A DNA stretch of 64,000 nt from assembly GCA_963749595.1 (NCBI GenBank), contig CAVVNJ010000002.1, positions 32,606 to 96,605 on the forward strand. Direction: 5' to 3'. Below the pieces are notes generated by a model. It was not told where the DNA came from and ran no database searches. It saw nothing but the letters and a program-made list of their open reading frames with translations. Position numbers and translations under genes: made by a program. The stretch comes from Candidatus Woesebacteria bacterium (lineage in GTDB: Bacteria > Patescibacteriota > Microgenomatia > UBA1400 > UBA1396). Shown here in pieces: positions 4,943-60,904 of this stretch (position 1 is the first letter of the stretch; each line of letters starts with the position of its first letter).

Positions 4943-4984
4943 ATAGTTTTCTATGTACTAGTGTACTAGTACATAGAAAACTAT
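4943..4984. repeat. 42-nt hairpin/palindrome with a tandem (GTACTAGT)x2 core
   Basis: Arms atagttttctatgtactag (4943-4961) and ctagtacatagaaaactat (4966-4984) are perfect reverse complements around the spacer tgta. The core ATGTACTAGTGTACTAGTACAT recurs at 28692-28713 with one mismatch. Confidence 0.8.
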
Positions 4985-13650: not shown

Positions 13651-13660
13651 ACACTAGTGT
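13651..13660. promoter_or_regulatory. 10-bp perfect palindrome ACACTAGTGT in a divergent promoter region
   Basis: Lies 16 nt upstream of the 13635 start codon, in the gap to the divergent 13747 gene. It shares the CACTAGTG core with sites at 28694-28701 and 57265-57274. Confidence 0.4.
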
Positions 13661-28526: not shown

Positions 28527-28669
28527 CTTCACGAATTTGGGAACATCTATCTTCTTTTGGACAATTCCAGCTTGCCGCTACTTGTACAAGTTGTTGTACA
28601 AGTTAGACGAAGCAGAAAATTCCAAAATTAATACCTATTTTCCTGAACTCGTGAAGTTCGTCGTGAAAG
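28527..28669. repeat. Intergenic motif set: inverted TTCACGA-type repeats flanking a tandem AACTTGTACAA pair
   Basis: cttcacgaatttggga (28527-28542) is an imperfect inverted copy of cctgaactcgtgaag (28642-28656). cttgtacaagtt and gttgtacaagtt are tandem at 28581-28604. cctgaactcgtgaag-N6-gtgaaag (28642-28669) recurs at 57597-57624. Confidence 0.7.
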
Positions 28670-28691
28670 GATAACTCGACTCGTGCTTTCT

Positions 28692-28713
28692 ATGCACTAG
28701 TGTACTAGTACAT
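28692..28713. repeat. Second copy of the ATG(T/C)ACTAGTGTACTAGTACAT motif
   Basis: atgcactagtgtactagtacat is 21/22 identical to 4953-4974. It lies between tRNA-Lys and the antiporter gene. Confidence 0.8.
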
Positions 28714-28771
28714 GAAAATGGGAGGGATATTGATTTGTTGGATTCCTGCGAGAAACGTTTCGGGAAAAAAG

Positions 28772-36107: not shown

Positions 36108-36181
36108 TGCGCCCGGCGGGATTCGAACCTGCGACCTACTCCTTAGAAGGGAGGCGCTCTATCCAGCTGAGCTACGGGCGC
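36108..36181 (-). tRNA. tRNA-Arg(TCT)
   Basis: Reverse complement is GCGCCCGTAGCTCAGCTGGATAGAGCGCCTCCCTTCTAAGGAGTAGGTCGCAGGTTCGAATCCCGCCGGGCGCA. Anticodon loop CTTCTAA. There is one A-C mismatch in the T-stem and one non-Watson-Crick 27-43 pair. Confidence 0.8.
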
Positions 36182-36197
36182 GCACGTGTATTCTACA

Positions 36198-36279
36198 GGA
36201 TCGTCCCTCCAGGTGTAAGGGTGGGAGAGGACGATCCCGGGATCGTCCCTCCAGGCCTGGGGTTGGTATAGGACGATCC
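36198..36279. repeat. Two tandem copies of a ~41-nt hairpin repeat immediately upstream of tRNA-Arg(TCT)
   Basis: GGATCGTCCCTCCAGG at 36198-36213 and again at 36240-36255. Each copy pairs with a downstream GGACGATCC (36229-36237 and 36271-36279). Confidence 0.8.
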
Positions 36280-50201: not shown

Positions 50202-52031
50202 ATGATCACCGCAACCGAATTGCGCCACCAGTTTCTCGATTTTTTCCGGGAAAAAGATCATGCCGTTATCCCTTCCGCTTCTCTGGTCCCCGATAACGAT
50301 CCAACCACACTTTTTATCACCGCCGGCATGCATCCCCTGGTACCCTATCTTTTGGGTCAACCCCACCCGGAAGGAAAGCGTCTGGTTGACGTCCAAAAAT
50401 GCGTCCGTACGGTCGATATCGAAGAAGTTGGAGATGTCACCCACTTCACCTTTTTCGAAATGTTGGGTAACTGGTCGCTCGGCGATTATTTCAAACGCGA
50501 GGCGATCGAATGGAGCTGGGAGTTTTTGACTTCCCCAAAATGGCTAGGCCTTAATCCGGAAAAATTATTCGTTTCCGTTTTTGCCGGCGACGCCGATGCC
50601 CCGCGCGATGATGAAGCAGCCGAAATCTGGAAATCAGTGCTAGCTAAAAGCGGCGTCAGCCAACCTGAAAAACGGATTTATTTCTACCCCAAATCCGAAA
50701 ACTGGTGGGGACCGGCCGGTCAAACCGGTCCCTGCGGGCCTGACACGGAAATTTTTTACTATACCGGTGAGGCGGACCCATTCGCGCCCGGATTCAATGA
50801 CGAGCCTTCGGCCGGCCAGAGCGCTTTTATCGAAATCTGGAATAACGTTTTCATGCAATACAATAAAAATGCCGATGGTAGTTTTGTGCCCCTGAAGCAA
50901 CATAATGTTGATACCGGACTCGGCCTGGAGAGAATGACTGCCATCTTGAACTGGTTGCAGGGGAATATTGCCGATCCCGATCCTTACACCACCGATTTGT
51001 TCCGCCCGATCATTGCCGAACTGGAAAAAATTTCGGGGCAGAGTTATGCGGATCTGGTTGCCCGGCGCTCAATGCGCATTGTGGCCGATCACTTGCGTTC
51101 GGTCATCTTTGTTATCCAGGACGGGGTCGTCCCAACCAACAAAGAACGCGGTTACGTGCTGCGCCGCTTGATCCGCCGCGCGGTCCGGGAATTATTCAAG
51201 TTGGGCGTACCGACCGAGAACTATCGAACGACGGTCGAGTCCTTGGTCGGTTTGTTCATTGCCAACTCGGAATACGATGAGGCATATCCGGAATTGGCCG
51301 TCAATCGCGAATCGATTACGGCCCTGATCTCGACCGAAGTGGAAAAATTCACTAAGACGCTCCGCAAGGGTCTGCACGAAATCGAAAAGTATCCGCAACT
51401 TGATGGCGAAATTGCTTTCCAGCTTTATCAGTCCTACGGTTTTCCGCTGGAAATGACTCAGGAAATTGCGATGGAACGGGGACAGACCGTTGACGCCGAC
51501 GGGTTCCGTTCAGAATTTATCAAACACCAGGAGTTATCCCGCCAATTATCCGCCGGCACGTTCAAGGGCGGACTGGCTGACCACTCGGAAGCCGCGACGC
51601 GTTTTCACACGGCCACCCATCTACTGCATGCGGCACTGCGCCGAGTATTGGGAGAATCGGTTCATCAGGAAGGCTCCAACATCACCTCTGACCGTCTGCG
51701 CTTTGATTTTTCTTACGACCGTCCGCTAGCCGATCAGGAAATCGAGCAAGTTGAAAATTGGATTAATCAGCAAATTAAACTCGACTTGGTAGTCACGAAG
51801 CAAACCATGCCCAAAGACAAAGCCCTCGCTTCTGGCGCGCTCGCCTTTTTCAAGGAAAAATACCCGGATACCGTTTCGGTTTACACCATCGGCGGAGAAG
51901 AGAACTGGATCAGCCGGGAATTGTGCGGCGGGCCCCATGTGAATCATACCGGTGAAATCGGACCAATTGAGATTTTCAAACAAAAACCGGTGAGTGCGGG
52001 CGTTCGCCGCCTTTATTTGCGATTTTCTTAA
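50202..52031 (+). CDS. alaS: Alanyl-tRNA synthetase, short form (catalytic + editing domains, no C-Ala domain)
   Basis: 609 aa. N-terminus MITATELRHQFLDFFREKDHAVIPSASLVP. FFEMLGNWSLGDYFK. Editing-site motifs HTATHLLHAAL and CGGPHV lie near the C-terminus. Confidence 0.93.
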   Translation: MITATELRHQFLDFFREKDHAVIPSASLVPDNDPTTLFITAGMHPLVPYLLGQPHPEGKRLVDVQKCVRTVDIEEVGDVTHFTFFEMLGNWSLGDYFKREAIEWSWEFLTSPKWLGLNPEKLFVSVFAGDADAPRDDEAAEIWKSVLAKSGVSQPEKRIYFYPKSENWWGPAGQTGPCGPDTEIFYYTGEADPFAPGFNDEPSAGQSAFIEIWNNVFMQYNKNADGSFVPLKQHNVDTGLGLERMTAILNWLQGNIADPDPYTTDLFRPIIAELEKISGQSYADLVARRSMRIVADHLRSVIFVIQDGVVPTNKERGYVLRRLIRRAVRELFKLGVPTENYRTTVESLVGLFIANSEYDEAYPELAVNRESITALISTEVEKFTKTLRKGLHEIEKYPQLDGEIAFQLYQSYGFPLEMTQEIAMERGQTVDADGFRSEFIKHQELSRQLSAGTFKGGLADHSEAATRFHTATHLLHAALRRVLGESVHQEGSNITSDRLRFDFSYDRPLADQEIEQVENWINQQIKLDLVVTKQTMPKDKALASGALAFFKEKYPDTVSVYTIGGEENWISRELCGGPHVNHTGEIGPIEIFKQKPVSAGVRRLYLRFS

Positions 52032-52032
52032 T

Positions 52033-52683
52033 ATGGAACAATCCTGGTTCAAACAATTTAAGATCGAAAGCCTAACACAACTTCATTCGCTTAAACCCTC
52101 GGAAGTGAAAATATTTCGAGATGAACCGGTTCCTGAGAATTTCACGATTGTCGTTCGCCCGGAAGATAAAATACTAACCGCAATCGAAAAAGAGATGTCT
52201 GCCTTAAAGAAAATCGAGCCGAATCAATTTTATTATCCCTTAAGCGATTTACATCTTACGCTTGTGGGTAATATTCCCACCACTATCGACCAGCAAAAAA
52301 TTACCATTGCCCTCGAGAGCATAATCAAGCATTATCAGCTGGAATTCAAACTCGAAGGTCTGGGTAGTAATAAGTATTGCTCCTCATTTTCTGCTTATCC
52401 GATCGATTTTTCGCTCCATAAGTTGAGAGAAGAACTGCGTTCCAGAATCGGTATTCATGGCGATAATTACCAAAACATTCTTCCCAGTTATGAATATGTC
52501 GGTTGGATCAACTACCTGCGTTACCTCCAAATCCCAGGGCAGAAATTTCTTAATCGACTTTATGAAAACAGGGGAGCGGTATTCGGACAATTTCGACCAA
52601 GCTCGGTCCAACTTTTTCGAAACACCAGTAAAGTGCTCGCCTCGCCTCAAGCTCAATTGATCACCGAAATCAGCTTAGTTTGA
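52033..52683 (+). CDS. Hypothetical protein (single HLTL motif; possible 2H-phosphoesterase-like, weak)
   Basis: I trimmed ORF 51994..52683 to the ATG at 52033. SDLHLTLVG resembles one H-x-T-x motif of 2H phosphoesterases. I could not find the second motif. Confidence 0.45.
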   Translation: MEQSWFKQFKIESLTQLHSLKPSEVKIFRDEPVPENFTIVVRPEDKILTAIEKEMSALKKIEPNQFYYPLSDLHLTLVGNIPTTIDQQKITIALESIIKHYQLEFKLEGLGSNKYCSSFSAYPIDFSLHKLREELRSRIGIHGDNYQNILPSYEYVGWINYLRYLQIPGQKFLNRLYENRGAVFGQFRPSSVQLFRNTSKVLASPQAQLITEISLV

Positions 52684-52723: not shown

Positions 52724-54730
52724 ATGGCTGCCCCTGAACAACATCTGGCGCTAGTATTTCTTGGCGATGCCGTGGCGGCGGCTTTGTGGCAATCGGTTGG
52801 TCGTCAACCCACCGTGATCGCCCAGTCGAGCTTTTCTCCTCTGGATAATCTGACCCTGCCGTCAATTAATGCTGCCCTGGATCCCGCCCTGGATCAATTG
52901 GGCGAGGCCGGTTTGTCAGTCAAAGACTGCCTATTTTGCGTGCCCGCAGCCTGGACTGATGAAGCCGGGTTGCGCTCCGACAAAAAAGGCTTACTTAAGT
53001 CGATTACCGATGATTTGGTTCTCAAACCGTTGGGCTTCGTCGTCAACAGCGATGCCCTGGCAGCGGCCGACAAAGAACGAACCGATCAACCTCTATCCGG
53101 CCTAATTGTTTATGCCACCGATCTCAATCTCTCGGCCGACTATTACCAATCCGGGGAACTGCGGCAAAGCGAGGAATTGGGTCGGAGTCAGCCGGAGGCA
53201 GATTGCAAAGAGCTTTTAGCCCGCTTTACGACTAAACCGAAACGTCTGTTATTGATTGAGGGACAGAATCCGACAGATACCACTAAACTGGCCACCGTTC
53301 TCAAGCAGCAAACCGGACTGGAAGCCGAAACAATTCCCCGAACTGAGTTGCTGCGCTCCGTGATCGTCGCTGGCGGCGGCGCCGTCACCAGTGAAATACC
53401 GCTTCCTGAGGCCACACCGGCCCCTAAAACAGAGGAAGAAGCGGCTTTTACCCCGCCTGACTTTCTGATCCACCGGGCTGAGGAAAAACCGGTCGAAGAA
53501 ATTGCTGAGACGACTACCGCCGCGCCCACCAGGCCACGCCTCCCCAAATTTCATTGGCCCAAAATGAAAAAACTAAGTTGGCCTCGCGTAAATCAAGGTC
53601 GTTGGCCGATTTTAGGCGCATTAGGCATCGTCTTACTGCTTCTGGCTGGCGGCTGGTTCTGGCTAAACCGCTCCTACACCGCCGCCGTTACTGTTTTAGT
53701 TAAAACGCAAAAATTCGAAACTGAGGAAACCTTTTTGTTGGCAACCGCTGATGCTCCCGTGGCCTCTGCTTCGGTCAGCGCCTTGCGGGCGACACCGGTC
53801 ACTGAATCAATCACTCTAGATAAAGAGGTTCCTACTACCGGGTCAAAAATCATTGGTGAAAAGGCCAGTGGTACCGTGACAATTTACAACCGGACGAGTC
53901 AGTCGAAAACTTTTTCCGCCGGAACCAAGCTGGTCGCCGGAAAATTAAACTTTATCCTAAATAATGAGATCACCGTGGCCTCAATCTCTGGAGAATACGC
54001 GCCAGGAACAGCCGAAACCTCAGTTAGCGCCGTAGAGATCGGGCCGGGCAGCAACTTGCCCAAGGAAACCGAGTTTCGGATCGCCAACTTTGACGTTTCT
54101 TCTTATGTCGCAAAAAATAAGTCCGCCCTTACCGGTGGCACCAGCCGTGAAATCCAAGCCGTGTCCGGAAAAGATATTGATCAGGCAAAAAAGGATTTGC
54201 TCAGCGCCGCTCAAACCCAACTTACGGAACGTTTTGCTTCCTTAGCCACTGACGAAGAACCGGTGTTATTTACCGGCGTGACAAGAATAATTGAGGAGAA
54301 GTCCTCCGCCAAAATTGGCGACGAAACCAAATTTGTCAACATCACCATTGAAGTCGAGGGAACCGGCGCCAAAATAGTTAAGGATGACGCCGTGACAGCG
54401 GCGCGAAGAATTTTTACCTTGCCAGAGGGATTCACTCTCCAGGAAGAAACCGTTGAGCTTGAGCCGATTGAGGTTCATCCAGAAAAAGACGGTTTGTATT
54501 TGCGTGCCAGATTGCGCGCGCAGGGCATGCCGATGGTCAGCGCCAGCGAAATCGCCCAGACGATTGCCGGTGTTTACGCCCCGCGCGCGCAAACCCAGTT
54601 GGCGGAAAACCCCAAGTTGGCTCAGGCGGAAATTGTTTTGCGTCCAACCTGGGCGGCGACCTTCTTTAATACCGTACCGGCCGATTCCAATCGAATTTCC
54701 ATCAGCATCCGGCTTGAAGGTGCGCCGTGA
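52724..54730 (+). CDS. Large single-pass membrane protein, function unknown
   Basis: 668 aa with one clear TM segment (WPILGALGIVLLLLAGGWFWL) separating an N-terminal cytoplasmic region from a ~340-aa C-terminal region. The stop overlaps the sortase gene start. Confidence 0.6.
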   Translation: MAAPEQHLALVFLGDAVAAALWQSVGRQPTVIAQSSFSPLDNLTLPSINAALDPALDQLGEAGLSVKDCLFCVPAAWTDEAGLRSDKKGLLKSITDDLVLKPLGFVVNSDALAAADKERTDQPLSGLIVYATDLNLSADYYQSGELRQSEELGRSQPEADCKELLARFTTKPKRLLLIEGQNPTDTTKLATVLKQQTGLEAETIPRTELLRSVIVAGGGAVTSEIPLPEATPAPKTEEEAAFTPPDFLIHRAEEKPVEEIAETTTAAPTRPRLPKFHWPKMKKLSWPRVNQGRWPILGALGIVLLLLAGGWFWLNRSYTAAVTVLVKTQKFETEETFLLATADAPVASASVSALRATPVTESITLDKEVPTTGSKIIGEKASGTVTIYNRTSQSKTFSAGTKLVAGKLNFILNNEITVASISGEYAPGTAETSVSAVEIGPGSNLPKETEFRIANFDVSSYVAKNKSALTGGTSREIQAVSGKDIDQAKKDLLSAAQTQLTERFASLATDEEPVLFTGVTRIIEEKSSAKIGDETKFVNITIEVEGTGAKIVKDDAVTAARRIFTLPEGFTLQEETVELEPIEVHPEKDGLYLRARLRAQGMPMVSASEIAQTIAGVYAPRAQTQLAENPKLAQAEIVLRPTWAATFFNTVPADSNRISISIRLEGAP

Positions 54731-56055: not shown

Positions 56056-57048
56056 GTGAAACTTACTGTCTCGACCCGAAAGTTGATTCTTGGATTGGCA
56101 GCGATAAGCCTAGGTTTTGCCATGGCCGCCGTTGGCATTGGCTGGTGGCTACTGCAGCCGGTGGGTCAGGCCGAAGCGGAGATTACCGTCGTCATCCCCA
56201 CTAATAGCTCGAGTAAAAATATTGCCGCTTTGCTCAGGCAAAAAGGATTGATCCGATCCTCCTGGGCCTTTTTATTTTCCGTCTGGCAACAAGGTCTGCA
56301 GAACCAGCTACAAGCCGGTAGCTTCCGCCTCAAGCCCTCACAAAGTACGCCGGAAATTGCCCAAGCCTTAACCAAAGGGACCAACGATGTTTGGATAACC
56401 ATTAAAGAGGGTTGGCGGGCAGAAGAAATCGGGGCACTGCTCGAAGAATTAATCAATGGTTTTCAACGCGATGATCCAACTTATCAGACCGAGTGCCTAG
56501 CTTATGAAGGCTATCTTTTTCCGGAGACCTACCTTGTCCCAAGACAGTACTCTACAGCCCAGGCTTGCCAATTATTGCGGCAAGAATATGGTCGCAAAGT
56601 TCCCTTCGAATTGAGGGAGGCCATTCATCGCGCGGGCCGGACCGAAGAAGAGGTGATGACTTTGGCCTCAATCGTTCAGCGCGAGGCCAAAAAACCGGCA
56701 GACATGAAGATTGTTGCGGGCATACTGTGGCAGCGCATTAAGTTATCGATGCCGCTGCAAGTTGATGCCACTCTACAGTACGTGCGGGGTTATGATGAGG
56801 TTGAAAATACCTGGTGGCCCCAAGCCAGACCGGAAGATAAAACTCTCCCGTCACCGTACAATACTTACGCCAATGCCGGATTGCCGCCCGGACCGATCAG
56901 TAACCCGGGGCTGGATGCAATTATGGCCGCGATTTATCCGACGGAGACCGAATACCTATATTACCTCTCCAGCACCGAAGACCAAACGATTTACTACGCC
57001 GAAACCTACGATGGTCATCTGAAAAACATCGAACAGTATTTGCAATAA
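56056..57048 (+). CDS. mltG: Endolytic murein transglycosylase MltG (YceG family)
   Basis: 330 aa with an N-terminal TM segment and YceG patterns LASIVQREAK, LQVDATLQY, SPYNTY and GLPPGPISNPG. Confidence 0.9.
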   Translation: MKLTVSTRKLILGLAAISLGFAMAAVGIGWWLLQPVGQAEAEITVVIPTNSSSKNIAALLRQKGLIRSSWAFLFSVWQQGLQNQLQAGSFRLKPSQSTPEIAQALTKGTNDVWITIKEGWRAEEIGALLEELINGFQRDDPTYQTECLAYEGYLFPETYLVPRQYSTAQACQLLRQEYGRKVPFELREAIHRAGRTEEEVMTLASIVQREAKKPADMKIVAGILWQRIKLSMPLQVDATLQYVRGYDEVENTWWPQARPEDKTLPSPYNTYANAGLPPGPISNPGLDAIMAAIYPTETEYLYYLSSTEDQTIYYAETYDGHLKNIEQYLQ

Positions 57049-57165
57049 GACTTTTACAAGACGAGAACCCCGAAACTCCTCTAAATCCATGATCAAGTTG
57101 GTGGCTGGGACAATGTATCTCCGCCGGTACTATCGACTTGACCGTTGGAGGAATATCTATCCTCC

Positions 57166-57583
57166 CAGCAATTTGCCTCCCAAATTACCCCTCAAAGTAT
57201 CCCCAGATAGGTTAGTTTTAGGAGCAGTTTGTGGTTACTCTAAGGACTTTTGGACAGATGTGGTCCACTAGTGGTCCATCTTTGGCCAGAGTGGGCAAAT
57301 AGGGGTCAAGAATGGGCGAATGGATTCCAATTACTTTCGAGCTTGATTAGCATTGGGAGCAACTACTTATCGACTACTACGCAATCAAGTTCATTCTGAC
57401 AGCATCTTTGGTTTTTAAGTAGTCGATTGGTCCCCAAATTACCCCCTGCTTGCCCGGATGGACTCAAACTAACCCAACAGTGAACCCTGCCTGCCCGTAA
57501 GGTCTGATTAATGACCTGTTTAGGGTCACCTTTAGGGGTAATTAGGGGCCTCCGGAGGGGACAGTTTGAGAGGCAAAACGCTG
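57166..57583. other. ORF-poor region with nested long-range inverted repeats: candidate structured ncRNA or MITE-like element
   Basis: The outer arms are 57166-57195 (cagcaatttgcctcccaaattacccctcaa) and the reverse complement of 57554-57583 (cagcgttttgcctctcaaactgtcccctcc). The inner arms are 57432-57445 (ccccaaattacccc) and 57535-57548 (ggggtaattagggg). Direct repeats ccctgcttgcccggatgg and ccctgcctgcccgtaagg lie at 57444 and 57485. Confidence 0.35.
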
Positions 57584-57643
57584 GGGAAATATATTCCCTG
57601 AACTCGTGAAGAGGAATGTGAAAGACCAAAACATTAGCGTCGA

Positions 57644-58273
57644 TTATTTTAGGTGCAACCTAAACCATTTTTCCGCTTCCTGAGAAACTATTTCCAGAGC
57701 GCCCGGTTCTTCGAACAGATGAGTCGCTCCGGGAACAACCATTAATTTTTTCTTTGCCTGGATTTTTTCCATCGCCCGCTTATTCAGCTCGAGCACCACT
57801 AAGTCGTTTCCACCAACAATCAACAGTGTCGGCGCCACTACCCGATCCAAGTCGGCCGCGGCCAGGTCGGGGCGGCCACCGCGAGAAACAACCGCCTGAA
57901 CCAATTTGGGCTGATTGGCCGCCGCGATCAAGGCCGCGGCCGCGCCGGTGCTGGCACCAAAATACCCCAGCGCTAATTGTCCGGTATCAGCCCGACCACG
58001 CATGGCTAAAGTCACTTGCTCCATTCTCCGAGCCAGCAAAGCAATATTAAACCTGGCTTGCGGATTACGATCCTCCTCCTCGGACAGCAAATCGAATAAG
58101 AGGGCCGCCCACCAATGATCCGCCAAATATTCGGCCACCCAGCGATTACGGGAGCTAGCGCGACTACTACCGCTACCATGGGCAAAAATAATTAAACCTC
58201 GTCGCTGATCCGGCCAAAATAAATCGCCGGTCAAGTATTCCCGATCAATGGCCATCGTGACTTTATTGATCAT
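57644..58273 (-). CDS. Dienelactone hydrolase family alpha/beta hydrolase
   Basis: I trimmed ORF 57644..58405 to the ATG at 58273, which overlaps the prs stop (ATGA). Motifs are IIFAHGSGSSR, GYFGASTGAAAAL (nucleophile elbow) and VPGATHLFEEPGAL. Confidence 0.75.
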   Translation of the reverse strand: MINKVTMAIDREYLTGDLFWPDQRRGLIIFAHGSGSSRASSRNRWVAEYLADHWWAALLFDLLSEEEDRNPQARFNIALLARRMEQVTLAMRGRADTGQLALGYFGASTGAAAALIAAANQPKLVQAVVSRGGRPDLAAADLDRVVAPTLLIVGGNDLVVLELNKRAMEKIQAKKKLMVVPGATHLFEEPGALEIVSQEAEKWFRLHLK

Positions 58274-59136
58274 GGACTGAAGTATTCTTTCAAAATTGGT
58301 AAAACTGAATACGTCCGCCAGCGCGGATCGACTGGTTGCGGAGGTAGAGGTCGGGAATCGCTGAACCACATGTGTTCCAACCCAGCCTCCCATATTCTTG
58401 GCCAATCCGGCTGGGAAAAAACGCCATGAACTACCGCCGCCGAAATACTATCCGCCGTGGGTCGTAGCGCGGATAAACACGACAATATCGTTGATCCGGT
58501 ATCGAAAATGTCATCAACAATCAACACTCGACCGCCAACCAGCCCATCGGAATACTTGTGCCTAACGCTTTGCCGATCACGGGTTTTGGTCATCACCAGC
58601 ACCGCCGGATGGTTTGGTAATAAGATTGCCACTTCTCGGGCCAAATTTTCCGCCCCGACATCAGGTGCCACTACCCAATCAAACAGCTGGCTATCGTCCA
58701 AAATTTTCTGAGCCAAAGGACGAGCGCAGGAAAGGGAAATAATCGGCAAAGCCAGAGCATTGCCCGGACCAGAATCAAAACGGATGTTATGAAGCTGCAA
58801 GACAATAATCTCTTTTATCCCGCACGTTTGCCAATAATCGGTGAACCACTGCAATCCCAGACACCGCCCGGGTTCAGGTTTATCTTGGCGGGCATAAGGA
58901 AAATATGGCGTCGCCAAACTCACCAAACCCCCATTGCGAGCCAAAGTATGCGCCAGCAAACCCAAACCAAACCAGTCTTCATAGCTGCTCGTAAAATCGA
59001 ACAAGAGAACACATTCGTCGCCGTCGACCAAATCCGGCAATTCTACATACAGCTCCCCGTTGGCGTATTTTTTCCAGCGCCACTCGACTTGGTAGGGAAA
59101 AGGGAGGTGATCGGATAGACTGATTAACCGCTTCAT
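58270..59136 (-). CDS. prs: Ribose-phosphate pyrophosphokinase (PRPP synthetase) family, divergent
   Basis: 288 aa with PYFPYARQDK (compare PYFGYARQDR), VVAPDVGAENLAREVA, VLIVDDIFDTGSTI and VVHGVFS. Confidence 0.75.
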   Translation of the reverse strand: MKRLISLSDHLPFPYQVEWRWKKYANGELYVELPDLVDGDECVLLFDFTSSYEDWFGLGLLAHTLARNGGLVSLATPYFPYARQDKPEPGRCLGLQWFTDYWQTCGIKEIIVLQLHNIRFDSGPGNALALPIISLSCARPLAQKILDDSQLFDWVVAPDVGAENLAREVAILLPNHPAVLVMTKTRDRQSVRHKYSDGLVGGRVLIVDDIFDTGSTILSCLSALRPTADSISAAVVHGVFSQPDWPRIWEAGLEHMWFSDSRPLPPQPVDPRWRTYSVLPILKEYFSP

Positions 59137-59777
59137 GACCCCTGAACTTCCCGAACCTGCTTCATGATTTGCAGCACACCCTCGTCATCCACCTGTGGGA
59201 AATCATCATAATAGGCGCCGATTGCACCCAAGAAATCTGCGTCTGACTGCAGAACCACCACTTCGTCTGCCAGTTGTTTTAATGCCCAAATCGTATCCGC
59301 CGGCGCCACTGGGGCAGCGGCCACAATTAACGCCGGATCACGGTGGCGCAACTCCTGCAATGCTGCTTTCATGGTTAGCCCGGTAGCAATCCCATCGTCC
59401 ACCACTACCGCCACCGCACCGGTAACGTCAATCGTTCTTCGATCGCCAAGGTAAATTTTCCGCCGCCGTTGGACCTCTAACTGCTCTTGTTCGATTTGTT
59501 GCAAAAACCAACGTTGATCCACGCCGGTCATTGATTGCTCATCTTTGAAGACATGCCCGTCTTCAGCAACGGCGGCGATCGCGAATTCCGGCGAAGAAGG
59601 ATGACCAATTTTTCGGACCAGAATTAAGTCAAGCGGCGCCTGCAAAACAAGCGCCACCGGGGCAGCGGTCACCACTCCTCCTCTGGGCAAAGCAAAAACG
59701 ACACACTTTTGCGCGGAAAAGCGACGCAATTTCTCCGCCAATAACTGTCCGGCTTCTAATCGATTCTTAAATCGCAC
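59133..59777 (-). CDS. Phosphoribosyltransferase-domain protein (COG1926-like predicted PRT)
   Basis: 214 aa with FALPRGGVVTAAPVA, LILVRKIGHPSSPEFAIAAV and the PRPP loop VAVVVDDGIATGLTM. The stop overlaps the prs start. Confidence 0.8.
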   Translation of the reverse strand: MRFKNRLEAGQLLAEKLRRFSAQKCVVFALPRGGVVTAAPVALVLQAPLDLILVRKIGHPSSPEFAIAAVAEDGHVFKDEQSMTGVDQRWFLQQIEQEQLEVQRRRKIYLGDRRTIDVTGAVAVVVDDGIATGLTMKAALQELRHRDPALIVAAAPVAPADTIWALKQLADEVVVLQSDADFLGAIGAYYDDFPQVDDEGVLQIMKQVREVQGS

Positions 59778-59782
59778 TTAGT

Positions 59783-60904
59783 TTAGGATATTAAGTTTTT
59801 ACTCAGCTTGTCAAGCCGGGTGTAGGTCAGAGCGGCCAAAAAAGTGGTGATCGGCACGGCCAGAATCAGTCCGATACTGGCCACTAAAGTGCGCACTATC
59901 TCGTCAGCAATAAACTCGTAGTTGATCACTTCTGCTAGCGGCCGCGGTGAGTCAACAAAGAGTAGTAACAGCGGTAGGGCAGCACCGGCATAAACCAGAA
60001 AGAGGGTATTAATCAGCGAAGCGATATGGTCGCGACCAATCCTCATTGCTCGGGTAAATAACTGCCTCATCGTCAAGTGATCCGCCGCCGCCTTTAACTC
60101 GGCAACAATTCCCGCCTGAGAAACCGTAATATCGTCAAAAATACCCAAGCCACCGATAATGATTCCGGCGAGCAAAAGACCACGGATATCAATTTGTCCC
60201 GGGCGAAAAGCCTGGAGAAAATTGGCCTCTTCTGACGCAAAACCAGTGAGCTTAGTGAGGCTCACAAAAACTTCAGCCAAAATACCGGTCAAAATCAGAG
60301 TTAGAATTGTGCTGACTGCCGCCACGGTAGTTTTTTTATTAAACCCGTGCGAAAGAAAAAAGGTGATTGGCACAATTAATAGAGAAGCAGTAATCGCGGT
60401 GGCCACCGGATCATGACCTTGCGAAATCTGTGGCAAAATGAAGGCAAAAATGATTAGTAGCGTCAAGCCCATCCCCAGTAACGAAGTCACGCCCTGCCAG
60501 CGACCCACCGCCACCGCGACGACAACAAAAAAAATAAGCAATAGTAATAATCCCCCGCGCCGGACATAATCCACGATTTGAAAATATTGGCTACCTTGCT
60601 GATCAACCGTCAGATTCACCACCACTCGATCCCCGACTTGATACTTTGGCAGGTTCGTCACCGGATAAAGCCCATTTTCGATAATCGCTGACTGGCCCCG
60701 AAGCGGACCTTTGACAATCGCCACCGACACTTTCTGATACAGCTGCTCATCTGAACCACCAGCCGGCACAATTTTCTTTTCCTCAAGCACTTCGGTAATC
60801 CGGCCTTCCAACATTTCTTCCCGAATCTCTTGCGCCGCGATTTTTGTCGGCCAAAAAAAAGCGATTAACCAGACTCCGATAAATAGAACAACCCCACGTT
60901 TCAT
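59783..60904 (-). CDS. YibE/F-like polytopic membrane protein
   Basis: 373 aa with a signal/TM segment, a soluble N-domain (EGRITEVLEEKK...VTNLPKYQVGDRVVV) and then about 7 TM segments. The family call is from overall architecture. Confidence 0.5.
   Translation of the reverse strand: MKRGVVLFIGVWLIAFFWPTKIAAQEIREEMLEGRITEVLEEKKIVPAGGSDEQLYQKVSVAIVKGPLRGQSAIIENGLYPVTNLPKYQVGDRVVVNLTVDQQGSQYFQIVDYVRRGGLLLLLIFFVVVAVAVGRWQGVTSLLGMGLTLLIIFAFILPQISQGHDPVATAITASLLIVPITFFLSHGFNKKTTVAAVSTILTLILTGILAEVFVSLTKLTGFASEEANFLQAFRPGQIDIRGLLLAGIIIGGLGIFDDITVSQAGIVAELKAAADHLTMRQLFTRAMRIGRDHIASLINTLFLVYAGAALPLLLLFVDSPRPLAEVINYEFIADEIVRTLVASIGLILAVPITTFLAALTYTRLDKLSKNLIS

Follow-up and report, generated by a model that had tools for sequence, protein, structure and literature searches.

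An orphan inverted-repeat segment at a variable gene junction of a Candidatus Woesebacteria genome

Bacterial miniature inverted-repeat transposable elements (MITEs) and foldback elements, such as the Correia elements, RUP and Nezha, are non-coding segments of a few hundred base pairs with imperfect terminal inverted repeats that can form a long hairpin. They lie in intergenic DNA, are lower in G+C than their flanks and are absent from related genomes. The segment described here shares these properties. It lies within a 595-nt gap (positions 57049-57643) between two convergent genes in a 64-kb stretch (the window) of the genome of a Candidatus Woesebacteria bacterium, a tightly packed genome of ~49% G+C from the Patescibacteria, or candidate phyla radiation (CPR). 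Searches of the source genome itself covered this window, which is part of a 174,862-nt contig. In contrast to MITEs, the segment has no further copy that we could find, no target-site duplication and no known cognate transposase, and its arms are unusually long (63 and 84 nt), asymmetric, composed of repeated 12-13-nt units and 80% identical.

Three other kinds of element invite comparison. Transposon ends of the IS21 family, Tn7 and Mu carry multiple transposase-binding repeats. Compared with these from general knowledge, the segment likewise has several motif copies per arm and asymmetric ends, the right arm carrying an extra block and one more site; it has neither transposition genes nor sequence similarity to known ends, however, and the likeness is architectural only. 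Repetitive extragenic palindromic sequences (REPs) and bacterial interspersed mosaic elements (BIMEs) of enterobacteria are, like the segment, imperfect palindromes of intergenic DNA at 3′ gene ends, and often the genes around them are convergent. Gyrase, which binds BIME-2, has a sequence motif with a periodic G+C pattern (PMC6379681), and the G+C content of the segment is periodic too. REPs are 35-40 nt long and occur in hundreds of copies, whereas the present locus holds one 448-bp unit, its motif having no other exact copy in the 64 kb and none in ten related loci, and no REP-associated tyrosine transposase (RAYT) was seen here. The large structured non-coding RNAs (ncRNAs) OLE, GOLLD, HEARO, ROOL and raiA share with the region a length of several hundred nucleotides and an intergenic position in a compact genome. 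Unlike them, the region has no Rfam match even at E = 10, no conservation or covariation, weak local structure and one supported long-range helix. Set against these systems, the segment is a real orphan inverted repeat in a variable junction and ordinary in kind. A literature search on MITEs or ncRNAs in Patescibacteria found nothing relevant.

The inverted repeat, its motif and its periodicity

Gapped alignment identifies an imperfect inverted repeat between 57150-57212 and 57514-57597, in which 49 of 61 positions match (arms ~80% alike). Its score is reached by none of 300 dinucleotide shuffles (z 6.6-7.0), and no other inverted repeat within 1.5 kb, anywhere in the 64 kb, exceeds its ungapped core in length. 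This inverted repeat is the sole repeat of the region that is clearly beyond chance. The whole segment, 57150-57597, measures 448 bp and consists of the two arms around a 301-nt core; the longest perfect stretch common to both arms is ~10 nt. The right arm contains an extra 23-nt block (57546-57568) that has no counterpart in the left arm; the CCTCCGGAGG palindrome (57549-57558) overlaps this block. Neither the core (57213-57513) nor the outer flanks show palindromic symmetry above chance when alignments are compared with shuffles.

An initial annotation, made from the letters and a list of open reading frames (ORFs), had described nested long-range helices here, and the strings that it quoted all occur where it placed them or within 1-2 nt. 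Its outer pairing (57166-57195 with 57554-57583) does exist, though not as strongly as the ~25 bp proposed, with 20 Watson-Crick pairs over 30 positions plus 2 G-U pairs on the plus strand or 5 on the minus strand, and it forms a portion of the larger gapped inverted repeat. The inner pairing, 57432-57445 with 57535-57548, is present as complementarity at 13 of 14 positions; it stems from the 13-mer CCCAAATTACCCC, which has two copies in direct orientation (57179 and 57433) and an inverted one (57535). As a helix it has a pair probability of ~0 in the folding ensemble on both strands, so the nesting of helices is not a thermodynamic prediction.

Both arms consist of degenerate units of 12-13 nt in which a run of C precedes A/T-rich sequence. 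A 13-nt motif, CYMAAANTRHCCC, was written post hoc from these units; with at most one mismatch it matches 24 sites in the window, of which 8 fall within the 595 nt, and exact copies are confined to this spot (5 of 5). No match was found in ten related loci (~77 kb). The exact direct repeat of CCCAAATTACCCC (57179, 57433) is itself unusual, being equalled by 0.5% of shuffles. Other strings noted in the initial annotation, namely a direct repeat matching at 15 of 18 positions, a small hairpin and an "11-nt series", are present, their excess over chance not individually shown. A tandem repeat array was considered and rejected, as Tandem Repeats Finder calls none, the G-run units at 57291-57322 included.

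G+C content oscillates with a period of 10.5 bp across 57150-57600. This is the strongest 10-11-bp signal in the 64 kb, the top four 451-nt intervals all starting at 57101-57176, and its power is reached by 1 of 500 dinucleotide shuffles for the element and by 0 of 500 for the core alone. With a power of 3.1-3.3, compared with 2.4 in the interval ranked next, the signal is a modest one, and it was spotted post hoc. C runs and G runs occupy one common helical phase.

Coding potential, RNA potential and related junctions

The region does not code for protein: by in-frame hexamer log-odds trained on the long ORFs of the window, none of the six frames scores above 0.14 across 57040-57640, against 0.5-1.2 in the flanking genes. 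It is the longest low-coding stretch of the window and the sole long one without a tRNA; the next four such stretches (570-690 nt) all contain tRNA genes (4/4). Pfam gives no match for the 60-, 88- or 49-aa ORFs of the region, none of 5.8 billion proteins has a word in common with the 88-aa ORF, and the 49-aa ORF has no match among 1.84 billion representative proteins. Eight ORFs looked up as exact sequences are absent from the protein collection, and none of the region's ORFs has been called as a gene. These results bear out the initial description of the region as the longest ORF-poor stretch of the window, with 60- and 88-aa ORFs that do not look like proteins. A hidden or decayed protein gene was likewise considered and rejected, given the flat hexamer score, the lack of protein homologues and a tblastx comparison with relatives' loci that returned noise.

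The proposal that the region encodes a novel structured ncRNA finds no support. Rfam yields no match at the gathering score and, up to E = 10, two noise hits (E 2 and 5.2); ARAGORN detects no tmRNA and no tRNA in the region, and no intrinsic terminator is found there against 1.4 expected. The single promoter-like site (Table 1) is no evidence on its own, since 1.3 are expected by chance. Minimum free energy (MFE) for the whole region is lower than in shuffles (z -2.5 on the plus strand, -4.0 on the minus strand), an effect of the one long inverted repeat, whose outer helix has a pair probability of 0.72-0.76 on both strands. Local folds of 120 nt are no better than those of the coding flanks (z -2.7 to +1.4). 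The most probable local helix is the hairpin at 57369-57427, which accounts for the only 120-nt interval with a z near -2.7. The arms mismatch at 12 positions, with 6 transversions, which abolish pairing on either strand, 4 changes that would be G-U pairs on the minus strand and 2 that would be G-U pairs on the plus strand; these mismatches show no RNA-type bias, and together with the base composition they fit divergence at the DNA level. No homologue on which to measure covariation was found in the collections searched. On present evidence the region is not a credible structured-RNA candidate, and it should not be carried forward as a large structured RNA unless transcript or covariation evidence calls for it.

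The left edge of the region is the stop codon of the gene for MltG, an endolytic transglycosylase, and the right edge is the stop codon of an alpha/beta hydrolase gene (Table 1). Both neighbours turn their 3′ ends to the region, and thus neither needs a promoter or leader there. G+C is 0.45-0.47 in the region and ~0.50-0.58 in the flanks, the hydrolase gene itself being G+C-rich (0.55-0.58). The nearest homologues of the hydrolase are 53-62% identical and scattered over many phyla, and no close relative was found. Because the gene is G+C-rich and its best homologues, at 62% identity at most, span so many phyla, it was probably acquired horizontally.

Fifteen loci were fetched for comparison, 14 around MltG relatives (33-77% identity) and one, L010, from a motif scan of JGI metagenomes. 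In the nearest species representative, UBA1396, MltG is 53% identical. Seven related genomes keep the order alanyl-tRNA synthetase (AlaRS), sortase, RuvX and MltG, but have 0-95 nt and then different genes after MltG; in the relatives whose MltG is 63-64% identical the upstream order reads AlaRS, a 680-aa protein, sortase, RuvX, MltG. A convergent znu-type ABC operon follows MltG at 0 nt in L007 and L008, and follows one phosphoribosyltransferase gene that overlaps MltG in L004. The other relatives have spacers of 37-95 nt and then quite different genes, and the closest one (77% identical MltG) diverges from the window straight after the stop codon. By tblastn, the window's hydrolase, Prs-like gene and YibE_F gene are missing from every relative's locus; its phosphoribosyltransferase and ABC operon are orthologous to those of the relatives. 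Searches of the region against the fetched loci (~96 kb) with blastn, tblastx and nhmmer found nothing similar, tblastx returning noise only. This absence is from relatives that share just 53-77% MltG identity and in which whole genes at the junction differ as well. Since the spacer and the neighbouring genes differ in all of the relatives' junctions, the region marks a synteny breakpoint, apparently at the edge of genes gained recently in this lineage.

The 3′ junction after MltG (57644-60904 of the window; L003, L004, L007, L011, L012 and L014) is a hot spot of gene turnover in the clade, with other genes in each relative, and the window's hydrolase, Prs-like and YibE_F genes are specific to its lineage.

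Origin of the segment and competing explanations

The explanation we favour, tentatively and short of calling it probable, is that the segment is selfish or left-over DNA: a decayed foldback, a MITE-like non-autonomous relic with multi-site ends, or else a scar left when the neighbouring genes were brought in. It would have arisen as a non-autonomous transposon-like insertion, or through a recombination event that introduced the hydrolase and phosphoribosyl pyrophosphate (PRPP)-synthase-like genes. An insertion between two convergent genes would disrupt nothing and hence be tolerated. The arms may formerly have served as binding sites for a transposase or recombinase; as they are just 80% alike, the element would now be immobile. 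Any present effect, such as a hairpin in read-through transcripts or local DNA bending, would be a by-product. In favour of this explanation are the lack of coding signal, the significant inverted repeat with its indel, arms made of sub-repeats, the absence from relatives, the newly arrived neighbouring genes, and a base composition and mismatch pattern that fit DNA-level divergence. A hint of instability comes from the Logan assembly of ERR12037366, in which the locus is represented by two independent contigs, each in two samples, that break off inside the core at ~57230 and ~57447, as a polymorphic or repeated centre would lead one to expect. Among the features that define a MITE, the segment has terminal inverted repeats, small size and no coding capacity. 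The other suggestion of the initial annotation, a nonautonomous element bounded by inverted repeats, suits the anatomy better than an ncRNA does, with arms of 63 and 84 nt in place of ~30, but stays tentative. If the segment is such a relic, it would be a small data point for the presence of foldback or MITE-type DNA in the streamlined genomes of Patescibacteria, and it would make the 3′ junction after MltG a gene-gain hot spot in the clade.

Several results weigh against a mobile origin. The additional copies and target-site duplications by which the initial annotation would have recognized a mobile element were absent from everything searched. No second copy appears in the remaining 63 kb of the window, in viral contigs scanned with arm-consensus and motif-pair patterns, in JGI metagenomes scanned with an arm-consensus pattern (the source genome lies outside the JGI and GTDB-representative collections), in plasmids and phages by blastn, or in the ~96 kb of related loci; pattern scans of the collections catch near-exact matches only, and the single-copy status is thus weakly established. 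The arm ends bear no target-site duplication, with trivial 3-4-nt matches in the AT-rich arm tips and no direct repeat of 3-10 nt flanking the arms in a compatible place. The Pfam-scanned ORFs, mostly housekeeping genes (the near neighbours included) with several lacking a Pfam match, include no transposase or recombinase. Finally, the helical periodicity is not predicted by a MITE model. As no target-site duplication was found and no further copy was established, we do not file the segment as a MITE.

One hit did emerge when JGI metagenomes were scanned with a second arm-consensus pattern (tandem motif). The sole match, 27 nt long (L010:488-514 in Ga0224498_10001806), agrees with 57522-57548 at 24 of 27 positions and is probably due to chance. 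It was rejected as a real copy on the grounds that ~2 chance hits are expected, that the similarity does not extend further and that no Rfam family is present there. The match lies in 5′ intergenic DNA just downstream of a TTGACA-17-TAGCAT promoter and upstream of a 198-aa ORF without assigned function.

A possible, if unlikely, alternative is that the segment was never mobile and is a functionless neutral spacer or fully decayed gene remnant at the edge of an acquired block, its symmetry stemming from a local inverted duplication or template switch. Its orphan status in every search, the lack of a target-site duplication and of a nearby transposase, the low G+C and the position at a breakpoint with variable gene content are all as this would have it. 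CPR genomes are compact, however, and the other four long non-coding stretches hold tRNAs, so that 595 nt of pure junk would be unusual; no residual coding signal or protein similarity is left, and simple decay does not explain a motif in two orientations, an exact 13-mer duplicate or a 10.5-bp periodicity. In an explanation at the DNA level, helically phased G/C runs and 13-nt sites would bind or wrap a protein between the two convergent transcription units, for example as a BIME/REP-like pad for gyrase or a nucleoid protein, and relieve positive supercoils where transcription converges. We consider this improbable. It would make sense of a periodicity that is the strongest of the window, of C and G runs in one helical phase, of eight motif copies in two oppositely oriented clusters and of a position exactly between convergent genes. 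In Escherichia coli, moreover, the gyrase motif includes on either side an arm of ~47 nt whose G+C content is periodic, and both BIME-2 palindromic repeats and the DNA downstream of transcribed units are enriched for cleavage by the enzyme (PMC6379681). The argument is nonetheless one of analogy: the same convergent junction in relatives does with 0-95 nt, exact copies of the motif are confined to this region across the window and ten related loci while BIMEs and REPs are multi-copy, and the periodic power is modest and was noticed after the fact. In its most specific form, the segment would be a ~450-bp CPR counterpart of a BIME or of a strong gyrase site, one that wraps or recruits a protein (gyrase, for instance, or a nucleoid-associated protein) and serves as a sink for supercoils or insulates transcription, which by analogy is conceivable but a long shot. 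If the periodicity and the motif array do form a protein-binding or supercoil-handling element, the segment would matter more than as a relic. To our knowledge, the management of chromosome topology in CPR bacteria is essentially unexplored.

A structured RNA is distinctly improbable. It could be a long-hairpin ncRNA in its own right or, alternatively, a structured extension at the 3′ end of the hydrolase operon (minus strand) or of MltG (plus strand), with a 45-60-bp outer helix acting as a stabilizer, an RNase III target or a two-way barrier to transcription. The whole-region folding energies and the probable outer helix agree with such a role, as do 25 of 30 pairs in the originally proposed helix on the minus strand when G-U is counted and an outward promoter-like site with 10 of 12 consensus positions. 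Set against them are the null Rfam, tmRNA, tRNA and terminator results, promoter sites at chance level, local folding no better than that of coding DNA, an inner helix with a probability of ~0 and a G+C content below that of the flanks. In addition, half of the arm mismatches are transversions, the region is unconserved even in the closest relatives and hence offers zero covariation evidence, and a period of 10.5 bp belongs to DNA rather than to RNA. Least probable by far is an inverton or other recombining switch, whose arms would be recombination sites and whose core would be inverted or cut out in some members of the population. Inverted repeats do flank a 301-nt segment, and the two Logan contigs stop reproducibly inside the core, flanking a central 216 nt. 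These ends suggest a reproducible graph branch caused by polymorphism or a repeat; they are kept as a lead only, since they match no repeat boundary. Inversion and deletion models were rejected for them because they fall neither at the edges of the 13-mer direct repeat nor at those of the inverted repeats (arm ends 57212 and 57514; the I7 pair 57221 and 57463). A switch is further disfavoured by arms that are 80% alike instead of near-perfect, with perfect shared stretches of ~10 nt at most, by the convergent 3′ ends of the neighbours, which leave no gene to switch, and by the lack of a recombinase among the ORFs scanned.

Feature coordinates, neighbouring genes and repeats elsewhere in the window

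Table 1 Coordinates of features in the 595-nt region and of the two genes that bound it (window positions).
Feature	Position	Strand	Remarks
MltG/YceG endolytic transglycosylase	56122..57048	+	Pfam YceG 1.5e-71; 308-aa called product recorded; longest ORF from 56056
Left spacer	57049..57149		No significant repeat; weak local hairpin ~57093-57141 (MFE fold), no U tract
Left arm, 63 nt	57150..57212		Degenerate 12-13-nt units; motif at 57179-57191 (+), 57191-57203 (+), 57209-57221 (-)
CYMAAANTRHCCC copies	57179, 57191, 57433, 57463	+	Window pattern scan
CYMAAANTRHCCC copies	57209, 57523, 57535, 57558	-	Window pattern scan
Core, 301 nt	57213..57513		No overall palindromic symmetry; significant 10-11-bp G+C periodicity
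Imperfect 38-nt palindrome centred on CACTAGTG (57266-57273)	57251..57288		Includes GTGGTCCA-cta-GTGGTCCA direct repeat, 57260-57278
Three successive 10-11-nt G-run units, GTGGGCAAAT, AGGGGTCAAGA, ATGGGCGAATG	57291..57322		In phase with the 10.5-bp periodicity
Local hairpin, perfect 10-bp stem 57369-57378/57418-57427, 39-nt loop	57369..57427		Pair probability 0.79 (+), 0.98 (-)
Second exact CCCAAATTACCCC copy (57433-57445) and further motif copy CTCAAACTAACCC (57463-57475)	57433..57475	+	
Right arm, 84 nt	57514..57597		Motif on - strand at 57523-57535, 57535-57547, 57558-57570
Sigma-70-like site TTGAGA-18-TATATT	57566..57595	+	Within right arm, outward-facing, antisense to hydrolase 3′ end; 10/12 consensus
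Right spacer, to hydrolase stop	57598..57643		57594-57624 resembles 28639-28669
Dienelactone-hydrolase-like alpha/beta hydrolase	57644..58273	-	Pfam; 209-aa called product; longest ORF to 58405

A replication origin or terminus was rejected as an identity for the region: the sign of the GC skew is constant across the window, and no DnaA-box-like or dif-like site was seen by eye. Upstream, a 668-aa protein without a Pfam domain (52724-54730) is encoded directly upstream of the sortase gene, a position kept in the relatives L004, L007 and L012 (680-748 aa). Because of this conserved position beside the sortase, the protein may be a sortase substrate or partner. The adjoining 229-aa ORF (51994-52683) has no Pfam match either.

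Some sequences of the region recur elsewhere in the window. The 8-bp palindrome CACTAGTG is found at 13652-13659, 28695-28702 and 57266-57273, three occurrences against 0.17 expected, a number reached by 0 of 100 shuffles. All three sites are in non-coding DNA, a variant, TACTAGTG, is present at 4956, and the palindrome could act at these places as a common operator or recognition sequence. The stretch 28639-28669, in a tRNA-adjacent intergenic region, resembles 57594-57624 in direct orientation (24 of 31 positions, with a 15-nt exact core, CCTGAACTCGTGAAG). It overlaps a plausible minus-strand promoter, TTCACG-17-ATTAAT, for which there is no matching -10 element at 57.6 kb.

Two other repeat types were noted in the window. 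A 32-nt palindrome with a 13-bp stem, TTTCTATGYACTAGTGTACTAGTACATRRAAA, is present in two 91%-identical copies (4948-4979 and 28687-28718), which lie close to tRNA genes and upstream of minus-strand genes for an acyltransferase and a Na/Ca exchanger; the copies resemble operators or hairpin elements. Immediately next to the tRNA at 36108-36181 stand two tandem 40-nt hairpin units, GGATCGTCC...GGACGATCC (36198-36237 and 36240-36279), which are 83% alike and constitute a REP-like doublet or a terminator pair.

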